From the IMG/VR virus record IMGVR_UViG_2563366838_000011: 14,507 nucleotides of DNA; one strand, 5' to 3'. The stretch's first letter is position 1; every line of letters starts with the position of its first letter. The position numbers and the translations under genes are program-made. Positions 2,968 through 12,544 of this stretch are shown here, piece by piece. This stretch comes from a virus. Its lineage: Duplodnaviria > Heunggongvirae > Uroviricota > Caudoviricetes. The notes below the pieces were generated by a model. It had not been told where the DNA came from and ran no database searches. It saw only the letters and a program-made list of their open reading frames with translations.

Positions 2968-3032
2968 CGCTGACAAAGCGGAATGTTCTTTAACAGGCTT
3001 TGGCGCTGACAAAGCGCAATTGTTCTTTAAAA
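2968..3032 (+). promoter_or_regulatory. 28-bp imperfect direct repeats CGCTGACAAAGCG-(G)AAT(T)-GTTCTTTAA (2968-2995 and 3004-3032); candidate operator sites in the int-alpA spacer
   Basis: two copies 36 bp apart, each with an internal CGCT/AGCG dyad; lie in the 428-bp non-coding spacer upstream of alpA. Confidence 0.4.
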
Positions 3033-3131: not shown

Positions 3132-3166
3132 AAAGACCGCAATATGTTTTTCATATTGTGGTCTTT
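3132..3166 (+). promoter_or_regulatory. 15-bp inverted repeat AAAGACCGCAATATG-TTTTT-CATATTGTGGTCTTT (one mismatch); candidate operator or RNA hairpin upstream of alpA
   Basis: near-perfect dyad with a 5-nt T spacer, about 90 bp upstream of the alpA start; not followed by a T-run, so not called a terminator. Confidence 0.35.
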
Positions 3167-3252: not shown

Positions 3253-3456
3253 ATGGCTAATTACAATTCATTAATTCGTCTCTCTGAAGTTCAAAGGCGA
3301 ACTGGTTATAGCAAAGCATGGATTTATCGTCTTATTAGTCAGGGGAGGTTCCCTAAACAGGTAAAAATTGGAAGTCGGGCAATTGCTTTTGTTGAGTCTG
3401 AAATAGATGAATGGATTGAGAAGTGTATATTAGAATCTAGAGACGAGGTGGCCTGA
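3253..3456 (+). CDS. alpA: AlpA-family phage transcriptional regulator (small HTH DNA-binding protein)
   Basis: 67-aa ORF with AGGA 9 nt upstream; sequence LIRLSEVQRRTGYSKAWIYRLISQGRFPKQVKIGSRAIAFVESEIDEWI matches the AlpA/prophage CP4-57 regulator pattern; sits second after int as in P4-like islands and PICIs. Confidence 0.85.
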   Translation: MANYNSLIRLSEVQRRTGYSKAWIYRLISQGRFPKQVKIGSRAIAFVESEIDEWIEKCILESRDEVA

Positions 3457-4908: not shown

Positions 4909-5930
4909 CCGTCCAGAAGAAGATATTTTCACTGACTGCTATGTCGCAAAAATCCAGCAATATGACAGCAAAGTCTGGCATTAATACAGCAGATACAAGC
5001 AAAGCTTATCATTTTATGGTGGTAGGAGCGGATGCCTTAACTATGTCAGAAATTACGGTCGATGGTGTTAGCGTTGAGAAGGTCAGCGGCTGCGCCAGAG
5101 AATTTCTGGTCGTAGATGACCTGTTCTGCTCGCGTAGTGACTCCACAAAAATCTTCGTCCGCACGCGCGACGTTAACGAAATGAGCGCGATGTACTGTGC
5201 CTCTGGTTCTTCCAATAGTGAGTTTTCGGAGTCCATAAAAAAGAGCTTGCCGTTATGCGGCAACACGGTTTATGGTTATAAGGCACCTCATAAAACGGGT
5301 GCCGGGATTAGGACCCCGCAGGCAATCGAGGCGATACATGACGCGCCAGCGTCTTTTTTTGTATCGGCGCACACGCACACCTTATCAATGGTGGGCTGTA
5401 TGGGGCTGACTTCGGTCAGGCTGGTTTCCTTGATTGCCAGTAGTCCTAACCCTGTACAGTCCACCGCCAGCGAGCTTAGGACCTCCGGCGGTGGCTATAA
5501 ACCATCAATCAAGGAGGCTGCCACATGCTGGCTACTACCCCTACCCAAAAACCGCAATTTATCTGGATTATCGCCGCAGTTCGCCGCGATTGCCCGACAA
5601 TTACCGCCAAAATTCATCATATTGCTGCCGAGTCTGAACGCGATGCTCGCCGTTCTCTGGTGCGCGATCACATCTGCTTTTTTGCTGGTCGTATCCGCAT
5701 GGAGGTGGCACATGATTAAAACCTACGATGTGCATATGGATCCCCTCGAACGCACAAGCCAGATCATCACACTGACAGAAGTGATTAACGACATTCTGGT
5801 GAGCAACTCTCCCTCACGAGACGAAAGACTGAAGGCGTTACTCGCGATATTGGATCTCGCCGTTCGTGACGTTCATTTCCTGCTGGAAGGTGGACAAATG
5901 CCATGCAAAACGGGGGCAACCAATGAATAA
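4902..5930 (+). CDS. uncertain long ORF (342 codons); N-terminal about 125 codons protein-like, remainder of doubtful coding character
   Basis: ATG at 4902 overlaps the upstream stop (ATGCTAA) with GGAGG 9 nt upstream; the frame stays open for 1029 nt, but 5280-5520 translates to low-complexity S/T/P/L-rich sequence and contains hairpins and a terminator-like structure; the last 72 codons (from ATG 5712) look protein-like again. Confidence 0.3.
5340..5360 (+). terminator. terminator-like hairpin GACGC-GCCA-GCGTC followed by TTTTTTT, inside the long ORF
   Basis: 5-bp GC-rich stem, 4-nt loop, 7-T run at 5354-5360; a UUCG-tetraloop hairpin (CTGAC-TTCG-GTCAG, 5405-5418) and an 8-bp dyad (CCACCGCC...GGCGGTGG, 5461-5494) lie just downstream. 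Confidence 0.3.
5525..5719 (+). CDS. hypothetical small protein, alternative frame nested in the long ORF
   Basis: 64-aa ORF with strong SD (AAGGAGG) 7 nt upstream of ATG 5525; translation ([22 protein letters not shown]...RIRMEVAHD) is more protein-like than the overlapping frame of the long ORF. Confidence 0.35.
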   Translation: MLATTPTQKPQFIWIIAAVRRDCPTITAKIHHIAAESERDARRSLVRDHICFFAGRIRMEVAHD

Positions 5931-7542: not shown

Positions 7543-7906
7543 AAATGTAGAAATGGCGCTTAGCTCCGCAATCGGAGAGCAGGTGGCAAAGATTGCTGGT
7601 GCTGTGTGGATTCATAACCTTCATTCTACTGGTGAAGAGAAAATGGCAATTCAGACGCCAGAGGGACGCACCATTACTACATCTCTGAAGCCGTCAGATG
7701 TTTGTGATCTGATTTGCGCATTCATGTACCCAGCAATGAGGACTGTCCACGGCGATAAGTGGAAACTTGCGACAACCGCTGAATTTGATATGTGGCTAAA
7801 CAATGATGGCATGCTGACTGATTACGGAATAACCAAGTGGCAGATGCTAGTTAGCCATATCGCAAACGCTATAGACCACGTGGGGTACGGTGATGCGAAA
7901 CATTGA
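7535..7906 (+). CDS. hypothetical protein (123 aa)
   Basis: ATG at 7535 with GGGAGG upstream, overlaps the upstream stop by 8 nt and the primase start; no family recognised. Confidence 0.6.
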   Translation: MRENVEMALSSAIGEQVAKIAGAVWIHNLHSTGEEKMAIQTPEGRTITTSLKPSDVCDLICAFMYPAMRTVHGDKWKLATTAEFDMWLNNDGMLTDYGITKWQMLVSHIANAIDHVGYGDAKH

Positions 7907-10649
7907 TCTTATCCGTCAGGTTATCAGTGCGTCTGAAAACAACTGGCCTCATGTGCTGGGCTGCCTGAACATAAATGTCCCTGACTCTCCGCGCCGTCAT
8001 GCTCCCTGCCCTGCATGTGGGGGCAAAGATCGATTCCGGTTCGATGACAACGGGCGCGGTAGCTTCATCTGTAATCAGTGCGGCGCTGGTGATGGGCTGG
8101 ATTTAATTAAACGCGTAAATAACTGCGACACAACAGAGGCGGCGCTTCTTGCCGCTGATGTTCTGGGTATTGATTACCGGACAACGGAAACACCAGAAGC
8201 CACCAGCCAGAAACGGGAACAACTGGAAACCGAGCGCCAGCGACGCGAACAGGAGCGCCTGAAAAGGGCAGAGAAGGACGAACAACAAAGACGGGATACG
8301 TTTTCCCGTCAGTTTGATGACATGCGCAGAAAGGCTGTAAACGGCAAATCTGATTATCTGGTTGCGAAAGGGGTAGGTGATTTTACATTCCCCGTGTTGC
8401 CCGATGGATCTCTGTTGCTGGCGCTGGTGGATAAATCCGGCGCAGTAACAGCAGCACAGACTATTACCTCACATGGTGAAAAAAGACTCCTGACAGGTTC
8501 AGCAAAGCGAGGGGCATATCACGCCATAAACGCACCAGAAACAACACAGAGCATCTTAATCGCAGAAGGGCTGGCAACGGCATTATCTGCCCATTTAATG
8601 CGTCCAGAGGCGCTGACAGTGGCGGCGATTGATGCCGGGAACCTGTTATATGTCGCCCAGGTACTGCGGGATAAATTTCCTTCAGCACAAATCATCATTG
8701 CTGCGGATAACGACCACAGCGAAGGAAGACAAAACACGGGGAGAATAGCAGCAGAAAAAGCAGCTTTATCTGTTTCTGGATGGGTGGCATTACCCCCGAC
8801 AGATCACAAAGCAGACTGGAATGATTACCACCAAAAACACGGCATTAAATGCGCCACAGAAGCGTTCAATAAGTCAATGTACCAACCACAGGGTAATGGC
8901 GTGAAACAGGAGCCACAGACCATTGAGGGAAGCGATTTTAAGGTTATGGATACCGATCCACTGAAACCAAGAATAGAAAGCCGCGAGGATGGTATTTATT
9001 GGGTATCTCCGAGAGCTGACAGCCAGAGTGGAGAAATCATCAATAACGAAAGCTGGTTATGTTCTCCGTTAAGCGTTATCGGTACTGGCAGAGACGATAA
9101 AGACCAGTATCTCATTCTTCGCTGGCTGTCGTTTGGTTCTGAAACGCCGACAACCGCTGCCATTCCACTGGCTGATATTGGTGAACGTGAAGGATGGCGC
9201 ACACTTAAAGCTGGTGGGGTAAATGTCACGACCAAAAGCAGCCTCAGAGCAATACTGGCAGACTGGCTACAACGCAGTGGCTCTCGTGAATTGTGGCGTG
9301 TTGCTCATGCCACTGGCTGGCAATGCGGAGCGTACATCATGCCTGATGGGGAAATCATCGGAACACCTGAAAATCCTGTGCTGTTCAGCGGGAGAAGCTC
9401 AGCCGCAGCCGGATATACCGTCTCAGGGAGCGCGAAAAGCTGGCGTGATAACGTGGCGCGTCTGGCCTTTGGTAACTATTCAATGATGACCGGGATCGGC
9501 GCAGCACTGGCAGCGCCATTGATTGGGCTGGTGGGCGCTGACGGGTTCGGCATTCATTTCTATGAGCAGTCGAGCGCAGGTAAGACCACCACGGCAAACG
9601 TGGCGAGCAGCTTATACGGCAACCCTGATTTACTGCGGCTGACGTGGTACGGAACCGCGCTGGGGCTGGCAAATGAGGCCGCCGCCCACAATGACGGACT
9701 AATGCCGCTTGATGAAGTTGGTCAGGGCGCTGATCCTGTCAGCGTTTCACAGTCTGCCTATGCGTTATTTAACGGTGTAGGGAAACTGCAAGGCGCTAAA
9801 GATGGTGGAAACCGGGATCTAAAACGCTGGCGTACAGTGGCAATCAGCACCGGAGAAATGGATTTAGAAACATTTATCGCTACTTCCGGGCGAAAAACCA
9901 AAGCCGGGCAACTGGTGCGACTGCTGAATATTCCGTTGAGTAAAGCAGTACGCTTTCACGATTACCAGAACGGAAAACAGCACGCAGACGCACTGAAAGA
10001 CGCTTACCAGCATCACCACGGCGCGTCCGGGCGTGAGTGGATTAAATGGCTGGCAGACCACCAGCAACAGGCTATTAAAACCGTTCGTGACTGCGAAAGC
10101 AGATGGAGAAGCCTGATCCCATCCGATTATGGTGAGCAGGTTCACCGTGTAGCCGCGCGATTTGCCATTCTGGAGGCCGCATTGTTGTTAGGCGAGGTTG
10201 TAACAGGCTGGGATGCTCAGACATGCCGTGATGCGATACAGCACAGCTATAACGCATGGTTGCGCGAGTTCGGCACAGGTAACAAAGAGCATCAGCAGAT
10301 TATTGAACAAACGGAGGCATTTCTTAATGCCTATGGGCTTAGCCGTTTTGCACCATTTCCATACAGCCCGGCAGATTTGCCCATCAAAGATTTAGCCGGA
10401 TACCGTCAGCGTGGAGAACATGACGAAAGCCCAATGATTTTCTACACATTCCCGGCCACATTTGAAAAGGAGATCGCATGTGGTTTCAACGCAAAACAGT
10501 TTGCTGAAGTGTTGAAAAAAGCCGGGATGCTAACCCCACCAAACAGCGGTCGTGGATACCAAAGAAAATCACCACGTATTCAGGGACGACAAATAAACGT
10601 TTATGTACTCAATTACCAGCCAGGAGATTATAACTCATCTGAAGAATGA
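7893..10649 (+). CDS. primase-helicase replication protein (P4 alpha-like / PICI Pri-Rep): zinc-ribbon, TOPRIM and P-loop NTPase domains
   Basis: 918-919-aa ORF (ATG 7893, or GTG 7890 as in the track); Cys motif CPACGG...CNQCG; TOPRIM-like segment ILIAEGLATALS...IIIAADNDH; Walker A motif SSAGKTT near residue 555; iteron origin immediately downstream. Confidence 0.88.
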   Translation: MRNIDLIRQVISASENNWPHVLGCLNINVPDSPRRHAPCPACGGKDRFRFDDNGRGSFICNQCGAGDGLDLIKRVNNCDTTEAALLAADVLGIDYRTTETPEATSQKREQLETERQRREQERLKRAEKDEQQRRDTFSRQFDDMRRKAVNGKSDYLVAKGVGDFTFPVLPDGSLLLALVDKSGAVTAAQTITSHGEKRLLTGSAKRGAYHAINAPETTQSILIAEGLATALSAHLMRPEALTVAAIDAGNLLYVAQVLRDKFPSAQIIIAADNDHSEGRQNTGRIAAEKAALSVSGWVALPPTDHKADWNDYHQKHGIKCATEAFNKSMYQPQGNGVKQEPQTIEGSDFKVMDTDPLKPRIESREDGIYWVSPRADSQSGEIINNESWLCSPLSVIGTGRDDKDQYLILRWLSFGSETPTTAAIPLADIGEREGWRTLKAGGVNVTTKSSLRAILADWLQRSGSRELWRVAHATGWQCGAYIMPDGEIIGTPENPVLFSGRSSAAAGYTVSGSAKSWRDNVARLAFGNYSMMTGIGAALAAPLIGLVGADGFGIHFYEQSSAGKTTTANVASSLYGNPDLLRLTWYGTALGLANEAAAHNDGLMPLDEVGQGADPVSVSQSAYALFNGVGKLQGAKDGGNRDLKRWRTVAISTGEMDLETFIATSGRKTKAGQLVRLLNIPLSKAVRFHDYQNGKQHADALKDAYQHHHGASGREWIKWLADHQQQAIKTVRDCESRWRSLIPSDYGEQVHRVAARFAILEAALLLGEVVTGWDAQTCRDAIQHSYNAWLREFGTGNKEHQQIIEQTEAFLNAYGLSRFAPFPYSPADLPIKDLAGYRQRGEHDESPMIFYTFPATFEKEIACGFNAKQFAEVLKKAGMLTPPNSGRGYQRKSPRIQGRQINVYVLNYQPGDYNSSEE

Positions 10650-10674
10650 GCTTCTTCATGTGCGTAGAAAAGGT

Positions 10675-10785
10675 GTTGGTTCAGTTGGTTCAGTTGGTTC
10701 AATTTGTAAAGAGTATTGTTTTATAAGGATTTTATTCTTTTTATTGAACCAACACTGAACCAACAACACGGTATTTTGAACCAAC
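10675..10785 (+). repeat. iteron-type replication origin: three tandem GTTGGTTCA (10675-10701), 43-bp AT-rich spacer, three inverted copies TGAACCAAC (10745-10753, 10756-10764, 10777-10785)
   Basis: read directly from sequence; sits just 3' of the primase-helicase gene, the usual ori position in P4-like satellites and PICIs; the track ORFs overlapping it (10656-10895 minus, 10716-10967 plus) are probably spurious. Confidence 0.7.
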
Positions 10786-10836
10786 ACAATGTGACTGAAT
10801 TGATGCGCACAACACCTGGCTGGCATCAGAGAGTGT

Positions 10837-10911
10837 TTTACGAGACTTTCGTAAAATCCTGTGTACAAGGGCGTGACGTTTTTGAAAGTGAGCACTACGA
10901 AATTTTCGTAG
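10837..10911 (+). promoter_or_regulatory. two related dyads TTTACGA-N5-TCGTAAA (10837-10855) and CTACGAA-ATT-TTCGTAG (10895-10911); candidate operator pair
   Basis: 7-bp perfect inverted arms sharing an ACGA/TCGT core, about 58 bp apart, in the non-coding region between the ori and the downstream operon. Confidence 0.3.
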
Positions 10912-11105
10912 TTCAGAAAACAGCCTCTGAGAAGTTGTTATGCCTGTTCAGCAAACCATCCGCATAGCTGATCGCGAATCAAATTACCAATGGAGCCAGA
11001 AGCAAGGGCAGAACTGAAAAGCGCCTGCCGTGAAGAGTAATGCGACACCATAAATATAGTTTTTAGAGTCCATAAAAAACCTGTCAAAACCTGACACACA
11101 GAACG

Positions 11106-11138
11106 ATGCCACCAGCTACTGAGCGGTGGCATTTTTTT
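11106..11138 (+). terminator. rho-independent terminator (8-bp stem ATGCCACC / GGTGGCAT, 11-nt loop, then TTTTTTT)
   Basis: perfect 8-bp GC-rich stem at 11106-11113 / 11125-11132 followed by 7 T at 11132-11138; oriented for + strand transcripts. Confidence 0.55.
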
Positions 11139-11233
11139 GTGCTATTTGTTTCATATTTTGCAATTACGATGATGAATATTGCGATTTGTGAAACTATAAT
11201 AACTGTTGTTTTATACAGTTCTAAGGGGGCGTT

Positions 11234-11395
11234 ATGGCTATTTCAGTAAAGCCGGTATTGATAAGTGAGAAGCAAATGGAAGCGATAAAGAAAATTCAGG
11301 AAGAGCAGCGTAAAAAATCAGGAATTGGAGTAGCGCCAACTCTGCATGAAATTGCACGAGGGTTAATAGATAAGGCGCTGGCAGGCTGTATGTGA
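11234..11395 (+). CDS. small protein (53 aa), possible ribbon-helix-helix-type DNA-binding regulator
   Basis: not in the ORF track (below its length cutoff); ATG at 11234 with AAGGGGG upstream and a TATAAT box at 11195-11200; translation MAISVKPVLISEKQMEAIKKIQEEQRKKSGIGVAPTLHEIARGLIDKALAGCM has a strand-helix-helix layout compatible with an RHH fold (inference). Confidence 0.45.
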   Translation: MAISVKPVLISEKQMEAIKKIQEEQRKKSGIGVAPTLHEIARGLIDKALAGCM

Positions 11396-11411
11396 AAATG
11401 GATGGCATCGC

Positions 11412-11873
11412 ATGGAACTAAAATTTATTGATAACCCTGTGCGATTACAGGCCTTTCTTAACGAGCCAGGCAATACCGAAAATATTGTTGAGCCGGGGCA
11501 CACGTACTACATCAAGCCTGATGCGGTATATCTCGGCATCTACGAAGGATTAGTGCTGGCTGGCGTTCATGAAGTGCGTAACTTCTGGCATAGCGTTGTT
11601 GAATGCCATGCGGTGTACGACCCCGGATTCCGTGGTGAATATGCACTGCAAGGACATCGATTATTCTGCAAATGGCTTCTCGAAAACTCACCATTCCTTA
11701 ACAGCATCACTATGGTTCCTGACACCACGAAATACGGACGGGCAATTATCCGTTTGCTTGGCGCTACCCGTGTTGGTCACCTTGATGATGCTTATATCAG
11801 ATGTGGTAAACCCGTCGGCGTAACGCTTTATCAGTTAACTCGGCAACAATATAAGGAATTCAGCGAATGTTAA
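11412..11873 (+). CDS. hypothetical phage protein (153 aa), first gene of the virion-protein-like operon
   Basis: ATG at 11412, 17 nt after the small ORF; its stop overlaps the next start (ATGTTAA); no family recognised; occupies the position of P22 gp14 in a 14-7-20-16-like gene order (positional inference only). Confidence 0.6.
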   Translation: MELKFIDNPVRLQAFLNEPGNTENIVEPGHTYYIKPDAVYLGIYEGLVLAGVHEVRNFWHSVVECHAVYDPGFRGEYALQGHRLFCKWLLENSPFLNSITMVPDTTKYGRAIIRLLGATRVGHLDDAYIRCGKPVGVTLYQLTRQQYKEFSEC

Positions 11874-12544
11874 TTACCCATATAGCTCATAAACATCTCA
11901 ATCGTGCCGTATACGAAAAAGGCGGTGATGGTGGTGCCTCTAAAGCTCAGGCGAAGGCCCAGCAGCAGGCAATTGATTTGCAGCGCGAGCAGTGGAATAC
12001 GGTGATGAATAATCTCAAGCCGTATGCAGAAGTCGGATTGCCTGCTTTACAACAACTACAAGGACTGATGACTCTGGAAGGGCAGAATAAAGCCGCGAAT
12101 GATTTCTTTGGTTCTGGTTTATATAAAACACAGGCAGATCAGGCCCGTTATCAGAACCTTGTCTCAGCAGAAGCTACCGGGGGGCTTGGCTCAACAGCTA
12201 CCAGTAACCAGTTATCTTCCATTGCGCCCATGCTTTATAACAATTGGCTTAGTGGGCAAATGCAAAATTATGGAAACCTGCTAAATGTCGGGATGAATGC
12301 GGCATCAGGGCAGGCAACGGCAGGGCAAAACTACGCCAATAATACCGGACAACTCTTGCAGGGGCTTGGCGCTATTCGTGCAGGTCAGGCGCAGCAGCCA
12401 TCCAGTCTTGCGCGTGGTATTGGTGGGGCAGCATCAGGCGCTTTAGCGGGTGCGCAACTTGGTTCCGTTGTTCCTGGAATAGGAACTGCGGCCGGCGCTA
12501 TTGGTGGTGGGCTTATTGGTCTTGTTGGGGGGCTTGGATTCTAA
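11867..12544 (+). CDS. putative phage DNA-ejection/internal virion protein with C-terminal glycine-zipper segment
   Basis: 225-aa ORF with AAGGA upstream; Gln/Asn/Ala-rich middle; C-terminus GIGGAASGALAGAQLGSVVPGIGTAAGAIGGGLIGLVGGLGF made of GxxxG/GxxxA repeats typical of membrane-inserting glycine zippers; size and position resemble P22 gp7-type ejection proteins (inference). Confidence 0.6.
   Translation: MLITHIAHKHLNRAVYEKGGDGGASKAQAKAQQQAIDLQREQWNTVMNNLKPYAEVGLPALQQLQGLMTLEGQNKAANDFFGSGLYKTQADQARYQNLVSAEATGGLGSTATSNQLSSIAPMLYNNWLSGQMQNYGNLLNVGMNAASGQATAGQNYANNTGQLLQGLGAIRAGQAQQPSSLARGIGGAASGALAGAQLGSVVPGIGTAAGAIGGGLIGLVGGLGF

Follow-up and report, generated by a model that had tools for sequence, protein, structure and literature searches.

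A predicted LexA-repressed late promoter behind a probable insulating terminator in an EcCIMP1-type phage-inducible chromosomal island

EcCIMP1, a phage-inducible chromosomal island (PICI) of Escherichia coli MP1, is mobilised by Kapi1, a P22-like phage (PMC11773190). The genes that follow its primase have been termed candidate packaging or morphogenesis genes, and text searches of that paper returned nothing on terminators, LexA, antitermination, nut or boxB (PMC11773190). In Staphylococcus aureus, packaging operon I of the pathogenicity islands (SaPIs) is described as LexA-controlled (PMC5052747, citing Ubeda 2007). Here, we analyzed a 14,507-nucleotide stretch of DNA (IMG/VR record IMGVR_UViG_2563366838_000011; hereafter the window) and focused on the gap at 10786–11233. 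Judged by its sequence, the window carries an EcCIMP1-type PICI, and the gap lies between the primase/origin (ori) module and a P22-like ejection-protein operon. The whole window shares 97.8–98.3% DNA identity with EcCIMP1 of MP1, including the proA/tRNA-Thr site. Across the gap, five substitutions and one iteron insertion or deletion (indel) distinguish the window from EcCIMP1.

The gap is the boundary between an early module (alpA to primase/ori) and a late module (a small gene plus P22-like gp14/gp7/gp20/gp16). We consider it probable that this boundary comprises decayed cargo, an insulating terminator and a LexA-repressed late promoter with an extra inverted repeat, in which termination, LexA binding and SOS induction are all predicted activities. 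An initial annotation had proposed a late-operon switch with two palindromes (dyads) as operators. All the features that it listed lie where it placed them and exceed chance expectation. Our analysis retains a boundary between two transcription units with a predicted regulated promoter for the downstream operon, but not the dyads as its operators. Candidate operator elements do exist; however, they are located at the promoter itself (11149–11193 and 11203–11218), where they had been missed. The elements around this promoter are the following.

11149–11193 (45 bp): inverted repeat TTTCA-N6-GCAAT-N13-ATTGC-N6-TGAAA, conserved across relatives
11195–11200, + strand: TATAAT, -10 hexamer of the predicted promoter for the late (ejection-protein) operon
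11201–11220: putative LexA (SOS) box AACTGTTGTTTTATACAGTT, core CTGT-N8-ACAG at 11203–11218, over the expected transcription start
11223–11229, + strand: Shine–Dalgarno sequence AAGGGGG, G-rich and conserved across genera
11234–11395, + strand: gene for a 53-amino-acid (aa) protein, the first late-operon gene in every relative examined

Contigs encoding homologues of the 53-aa protein were compared. The 280–330 bp upstream of the small gene were aligned for 12 loci from Escherichia, Serratia, Citrobacter, Leclercia, Klebsiella and Raoultella, and one IMG/VR contig (L123) was read separately. The TATAAT, Shine–Dalgarno sequence and start codon listed in the initial annotation were all present. 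TATAAT was found in 11 of the 12 aligned sequences, which span the six genera, and one Klebsiella sequence has TAAAAT. Among 11 E. coli-type sequences, the -10 hexamer, the Shine–Dalgarno sequence and the LexA core are invariant; polymorphism among these copies is otherwise spread so evenly that functional segments do not stand out from neutral ones.

The pattern CTGT-N8-ACAG has a single match in the 14.5-kb window, against 0.19 expected by chance. The island 20-mer was scored with a position weight matrix (PWM) that was built from textbook E. coli LexA sites and had the recovery of dinD as its sole check. It scored 20.0 bits, compared with 13.4 (minimum), 19.7 (median) and 26.9 (maximum) for the training sites, and exceeded the best score in 200 shuffled windows (18.9 bits). 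When dinD was left out of training and the 28.8-kb locus L001 was scanned, the island box (19.4 bits) came second only to the genuine dinD box (25.8 bits). The same matrix found no LexA-type site above 11 bits in the Kapi1 and P22 genomes. The versions in E. coli, Serratia, Citrobacter, Leclercia and L123 (13–22 bits) all retain CTGT and ACAG around a spacer of varying sequence. Since the box starts one base past the conserved TATAAT, bound LexA would be expected to occlude the start site.

The inverted repeat is centred on a weak -35-like hexamer, ATGAAT (11172–11177), which matches the consensus at 3/6 positions. Its arms change independently across genera (GCAAT with ATTTC; GAAAT with ATTGC), without compensating pairs, so that it behaves as a DNA-binding site. 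It is therefore probably a site for a protein, and the alternative of an RNA helix at 11149–11193 was rejected because the arms do not covary.

Taken as a whole, the predicted late promoter (11149–11220) would combine a perfect -10 hexamer, a poor -35 hexamer flanked by an inverted repeat and a LexA box over the start. LexA would repress the late operon until the SOS response sets in upon DNA damage. This response, which is also the inducing signal of helper prophages, would then induce the genes for the 53-aa protein and the ejection proteins. Such an arrangement resembles the E. coli SOS promoters dinD, uvrB and recA in having a CTGT-N8-ACAG box that overlaps the -10/+1 region and scores within the range of known sites. 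It differs from them in being carried by a mobile element, in the 45-bp inverted repeat around a weak -35 and in that one clade of island relatives lacks the canonical spacing. The likeness to SaPI operon I lies in a virion-function module that is downstream of replication and under the host SOS repressor (PMC5052747, citing Ubeda 2007). The two differ in that the SaPI operon has a Gram-positive LexA motif and contains the unrelated genes terS, cpmAB and pti, whereas the island operon encodes P22-type ejection proteins and its LexA site is predicted. A literature search found no report of LexA control of a Gram-negative PICI. If true, a LexA-repressed promoter offers a simple account of when the ejection-protein genes are expressed, and would extend to a Gram-negative satellite the principle of SaPI operon I, namely that virion-related genes are timed by the host SOS system.

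The promoter pattern was also compared with one genome per species. Four matches in Enterobacteriaceae (Raoultella, Leclercia, Klebsiella and Escherichia) align with the promoter; matches outside this family are scattered over unrelated AT-rich genomes, look like chance and were discarded. In E. coli E54 (L109, 675–977), a 100-aa RefSeq coding sequence (CDS) takes in the promoter and LexA box as an upstream extension of the small gene, and is probably an over-long start call. In one Klebsiella relative, the same small gene and promoter are followed by an unrelated operon with a small-terminase gene.

Upstream of the promoter, a strong hairpin follows a 22-nt motif.

11058–11079, + strand: 22-nt motif AGTTTTTAGAGTCCATAAAAAA (AGTTTTnnGAGTCCATAAAAAA), upstream of the late-region terminator
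11105–11138, + strand: intrinsic terminator with stem GATGCCACC/GGTGGCATT at 11105–11133, an 11-nt loop region and a T7 tail at 11132–11138

The canonical intrinsic terminator of the initial annotation was recovered by a terminator scan. Its hairpin has a folding energy of -25.1 kcal/mol (z = -6.8), which none of 200 shuffled sequences matched in stability, and the helix can be extended to 11097–11141. The terminator is expected to be mainly unidirectional, since the T7 tract lies on the + strand and the minus-strand version is followed by ATCGTTCTG. The GATGCCACC/GGTGGCATT stem is common to the E. coli-type islands. At the same position, Citrobacter and Leclercia have GCCACC/GGTGGC followed by T6, and L123 has CACCACT/AGTGGTG followed by T8. 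Thus, three unrelated stem sequences occur, always with the 22-nt motif on one side and the inverted repeat on the other; this retention of structure while sequence changes argues for function. No hairpin was found at this position in the Klebsiella/Raoultella clade.

In some relatives, intact + strand cargo genes extend up to the terminator position, so the simplest role for the hairpin is stopping transcription from upstream and protecting the late promoter. The earlier suggestion, that it ends read-through from the primase operon, is the best reading, and the terminator most likely ends and insulates the upstream (primase/ori) operon. In the proposed mechanism, the terminator at 11105–11138 would stop polymerase arriving from the upstream + strand genes and ori, and so insulate the late promoter.

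The gene content between the primase/ori and the small gene varies widely among the relatives. This slot holds SSB, ProQ and 329-aa genes in Citrobacter, three minus-strand genes in one Klebsiella, an insertion sequence and other genes in a second Klebsiella (L010), and a 153-aa gene in E. coli EC931. In Serratia it spans only ~420 bp, with the 22-nt motif within ~25 nt of the last iteron and no dyad block. Because the slot content varies in this way, the dyad block appears to be cargo that the island can do without; conservation is instead seen closer to the small gene. In the window, the slot contains the following.

10835–10855: dyad 1, TTTTACGA-N5-TCGTAAAA, core TACGAGACTTTCGTA at 10839–10853
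10870–10985, + strand: antirepressor gene fragment (P1 Ant/KilA-N-like N-terminal domain), from tblastn and DNA alignment
10894–10912: dyad 2, ACTACGAAA-T-TTTCGTAGT, core TACGAAATTTTCGTA at 10896–10910
10934–11053, + strand: remnant homologous to the 3'-terminal part of a 153-aa cargo gene that E. coli EC931 carries intact, from tblastn and DNA alignment
11032–11053, + strand: conserved junction motif AAGAGTAATGCGACACCATAAA, the left boundary of the block that Serratia, Citrobacter and Leclercia also have

The two related palindromes noted initially are real: their cores are 87% alike, at a distance of 57 nt. By our own arithmetic, a perfect 9+1+9 palindrome is expected by chance ~0.002 times per 450 bp. 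Dyad 2 reads TAC GAA ATT TTC GTA, that is, codons Y-E-I-F-V within the wider string H-Y-E-I-F-V-V. The sole phage match for the region lies inside gp080 of Klebsiella phage phiKp_30, with residues 49–74 matching one window frame and residues 64–88 another by tblastn; DNA alignment placed a 1-nt deletion at ~10930–10935 that splits the two frames. Relatives of gp080 are annotated as anti-repressor or Ant1/2, and its N-terminal domain matches P1 Ant1/Ant2. The identical 15-mer TACGAAATTTTCGTA is found inside antirepressor CDSs of phiKp_30, a Stx-type phage and Klebsiella phage ZX1.

Dyad 1 coincides exactly with a mosaic junction, at which similarity to locus L002 begins and similarity to locus L003 ends. 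Many E. coli megablast matches begin only at ~10833, behind a different replication module, and in EC931 similarity stops inside dyad 1, from where the 153-aa gene replaces the block. The left half of dyad 1 fits the GTTTTNNGAGNC pattern. In the L002 variant, a C-to-T change at 10850 breaks the palindrome with no compensating change. Further downstream, the cargo remnant shares 16/39 identities with the EC931 gene over its last 39 codons, ending in the common ...KSNATP*, and is broken by an in-frame TGA at 11015–11017. The EC931 gene ends within the AAGAGTAATGCGACACCATAAA junction motif.

The region holds no convincing upstream + strand gene, as had been stated; the only open reading frames (ORFs) are 10716–10967 (83 aa, TTG start) and short pieces, which have no Pfam or PHROG match and whose database relatives are the same E. 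coli ORF only. RefSeq annotates no CDS in this gap in any retrieved genome carrying the block. The 54/83-aa ORF over the dyads was rejected as a real gene, as it belongs to no Pfam/PHROG family and tblastn found only the phiKp_30 fragment. A search of 5.8 billion proteins with the conceptually repaired 83-aa protein returned no intact parent, but only the same E. coli ORF. We read 10835–11053 as probable decayed cargo, in which a frameshifted antirepressor piece would be fused to the tail of another gene.

These observations speak against the dyads as operators of the downstream operon. They lie 285–355 bp upstream of the -10 hexamer, beyond a strong terminator. Their block is absent in Serratia, Citrobacter, Leclercia, Klebsiella, Raoultella and L123, all of which keep the promoter, and EC931 replaces it from mid-dyad 1 yet keeps the promoter too. 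Moreover, dyad 2 is already accounted for as antirepressor codons (YEIFV). The dyads are most likely inert, dyad 2 being apparently inherited coding sequence and dyad 1 a recombination joint. The conspicuous dyads are thus gene wreckage, and the operator idea can be set aside as a false lead.

Several points weigh against our view of the gap as decayed cargo, insulating terminator and LexA-repressed promoter. In the three phages (loci L005, L104 and L105), TACGAAATTTTCGTA (10896–10910) is identical while adjoining codons vary synonymously, and this exact conservation may reflect a role at the DNA level, for dyad 2 as well as in those genes. At the terminator position, Serratia lacks a convincing hairpin (z = +0.8). 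The late promoter was missed by the promoter scan on account of its 3/6 match at -35 and may need an activator. LexA control is a prediction from a matrix of textbook sites with dinD as its one check. In addition, the box is one base short in four Klebsiella/Raoultella relatives (CTG-N9-CAG), where its score is only 5–7 bits. Owing to this spacing, LexA control is not universal among the relatives and has probably been lost in these versions, and the promoter palindrome might serve another protein.

One such protein could be encoded by the island itself: the palindrome and inverted repeat would be operators for, for example, the 53-aa protein as a ribbon-helix-helix-like autorepressor, and the likeness to a LexA site would be coincidental. 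The small gene and this promoter are always found together in the relatives, and the Klebsiella-type relatives retain a palindrome at the non-LexA spacing. The 53-aa protein is predicted to have an extended N-terminus followed by two helices (predicted local distance difference test score, pLDDT, 75), which is the element order of Arc/MetJ-type repressors. Its top Foldseek row, which is non-significant, is NikR, a ribbon-helix-helix protein. However, no significant Pfam, PHROG, PDB or Foldseek match was obtained, and a pLDDT of 75 corresponds to moderate confidence, so the protein was not accepted as an established ribbon-helix-helix protein. The box, moreover, scores like real LexA sites and keeps CTGT and ACAG exactly while the spacer drifts. 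We therefore regard autorepression as quite unlikely and favor LexA as the regulator at 11203–11218.

The initial annotation had also raised the idea that the terminator defines a short non-coding RNA. In its fuller form, the terminator would close a small RNA or short peptide gene at ~11040–11138, with the dyads as regulators. It is true that a strong terminator stands here without an intact gene ahead of it in the window, and that the 22-nt motif lying 27 nt upstream of it also precedes the isrK small-RNA gene (at 5221–5242). Nevertheless, a promoter scan found no sigma-70-like promoter in 10300–11700, where the late promoter itself was not called because of its weak -35 (3/6), and the -35/-10 hexamers upstream of the terminator are poor by eye. 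The studied region has no Rfam match even at E ≤ 1. No transcribed body before the hairpin is conserved across genera, and the sequence between motif and hairpin is wholly different among E. coli, Citrobacter and L123. The intact + strand cargo genes in relatives suffice as a reason for a terminator. A minus-strand ORF running through the 22-nt motif is not conserved, and the minus-strand ORFs (64 aa and 42 aa) were rejected, as they start inside the hairpin and, in our own reading, the Citrobacter version stops after three codons. A small RNA or peptide gene at this site is highly improbable, and termination of the primase/ori operon remains our preferred role for the hairpin.

The 22-nt motif has a second copy in the window.

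5221–5242, + strand: second copy of the 22-nt motif, 20/22 identical, directly upstream of the isrK -35

The motif is kept at both positions across genera, always on the + strand, and is in tandem in Citrobacter and Leclercia; it was found in L002–L004, L006, L007, L012–L014, L031, L091, L123 and L231. A scan of IMG/VR returned at least 120 contigs. Among the matches listed, most are codons (..F-x-E-S-I-K-K-G-K..) in small-terminase genes and sixteen are isrK promoters. In one E. coli class of small terminase with the motif, the C-terminus is the same as in Kapi1 TerS. Kapi1 was considered as a source of the motif or of a P22-type boxB, and neither is present in it; the P22 pac site is unrelated to the motif. 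The motif could be an UP-element-like site, an activator site or a packaging-site mimic. As a further helper-read signal, it might mimic the packaging site in the small-terminase gene of certain P22-like phages.

The other features that define the island are listed below.

1369–1444: tRNA-Thr(CGU) gene
1610–2824, + strand: integrase gene
3253–3456, + strand: AlpA-type helix-turn-helix gene
Between the AlpA-type gene and the isrK/C4 RNA genes, + strand: AntA/B antirepressor gene
5283–5471: isrK and C4 RNA genes (Rfam)
7890–10649, + strand: 919-aa Zn-ribbon/Toprim/DUF927 primase (Pfam)
10675–10787, + strand: replication origin, with three GTTGGTTCA iterons, an AT-rich spacer and three inverted TGAACCAAC iterons
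Downstream of the 53-aa gene, + strand: homologues of P22 gp14 (DUF2824), gp7 and gp20 (Pfam)

The window starts inside a 417-aa ORF, which corresponds to proA in the EcCIMP1 locus, and EcCIMP1 shares with the window both the integration site (tRNA-Thr adjoining proA) and the gene order. Of the hallmarks of a PICI, an integrase at a tRNA site, an AlpA-type regulator, and a primase with an iteron ori are present. No capsid or terminase genes were seen in the gene content of the window, which ends inside the island. Helper-dependent mobilisation is predicted for this island from the report on EcCIMP1 (PMC11773190). The end of the last origin iteron marks the start of the studied gap, and the iteron region 10744–10787 carries a 10-nt indel relative to EcCIMP1 of MP1. 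By megablast, the studied region was found in 574 of 5426 complete E. coli genomes. EcCIMP1-type islands are thus common in E. coli and carry copies of P22-type ejection-protein genes. The island DUF2824 (P22 gp14-like) gene at 11412–12001 shares 81% DNA identity with positions 27948–28536 of the helper Kapi1. Related islands have either gp14-gp7-gp20-gp16 or gp20-gp16 alone.

Between the integrase and alpA, the window contains sequences resembling the nut sites of P22.

2831–2859: promoter-like site, overlapping a weaker LexA-like site AACTGGACAAGTATACAGAG (14 bits)
2929–2938: boxA-like sequence CGCTCTTTTA
2967–2981 (core 2968–2980) and 3004–3018: boxB hairpins
2985–2995: boxA-like sequence TGTTCTTTAAC
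3132–3166: terminator-like hairpin before alpA, -20.8 kcal/mol

A BLAST search of this region against phages gave no match, as the motifs are too short for it and a direct comparison with P22 was needed. The window at 2985–3018 reads TGTTCTTTAAC-8 nt-GCGCTGACAAAGCGC, whereas P22 nutL reads CGCTCTTTAAC-9 nt-GCGCTGACAAAGCGC. The two are alike in boxB (15/15) and in having a boxA-like sequence upstream, and the P22-type nut pattern (boxA, short spacer and boxB hairpin GCGCUGACAAAGCGC) occurs at 2985–3018. They differ in that the island sites lie ~8 kb upstream of the studied gap, their function is predicted and the known helper Kapi1 uses a phi21-type boxB.

These sites suggest another role for the terminator, that of a conditional barrier within one long helper-dependent transcript: RNA polymerase modified by a helper N at P22-type nut sites upstream of alpA would read through into the late genes, perhaps jointly with LexA. 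The boxB at 3004–3018, identical to that of P22 nutL, is accompanied by a second boxB core, with a promoter-like site (2831–2859) upstream and a hairpin (3132–3166) downstream. The large ORFs of the integrative element, including those from 3253 onward, all lie on the + strand and match annotated genes of relatives. In EcCIMP1, an alpA reporter (-449 to +50) is reported to be induced only with helper and to respond still without AlpA (PMC11773190). On the other hand, Kapi1 is the only proven helper, and its boxB sequences are of the phi21 type, with none of the P22 type; a matching P22-type N was not found for Kapi1, the helper examined. In strain MP1, the first boxB is degraded and one boxB core is kept. 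These boxB sequences are missing from islands that combine another int-alpA module with the same late region, and the late operon has its own conserved promoter. Conditional read-through seems unlikely, and so does a late operon gated by two inputs, with host LexA acting at 11203–11218 and a helper P22-type N carrying polymerase past 11138. An insulating terminator ahead of an independently regulated late promoter remains the reading that we prefer.

An ORF annotated as 'ash family protein' contains, in tandem, the genes for isrK (63 bits) and the C4 antisense RNA (80 bits), and in relatives an Icd-like gene is annotated directly downstream of the pair. By eye, the C4 loops CCUUGAUUG and GUCCUAA complement CAAUCGAGG and UUAGGAC in isrK, as well as UUAGGAC at 5476–5482. 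This layout resembles the P1-type immI arrangement.

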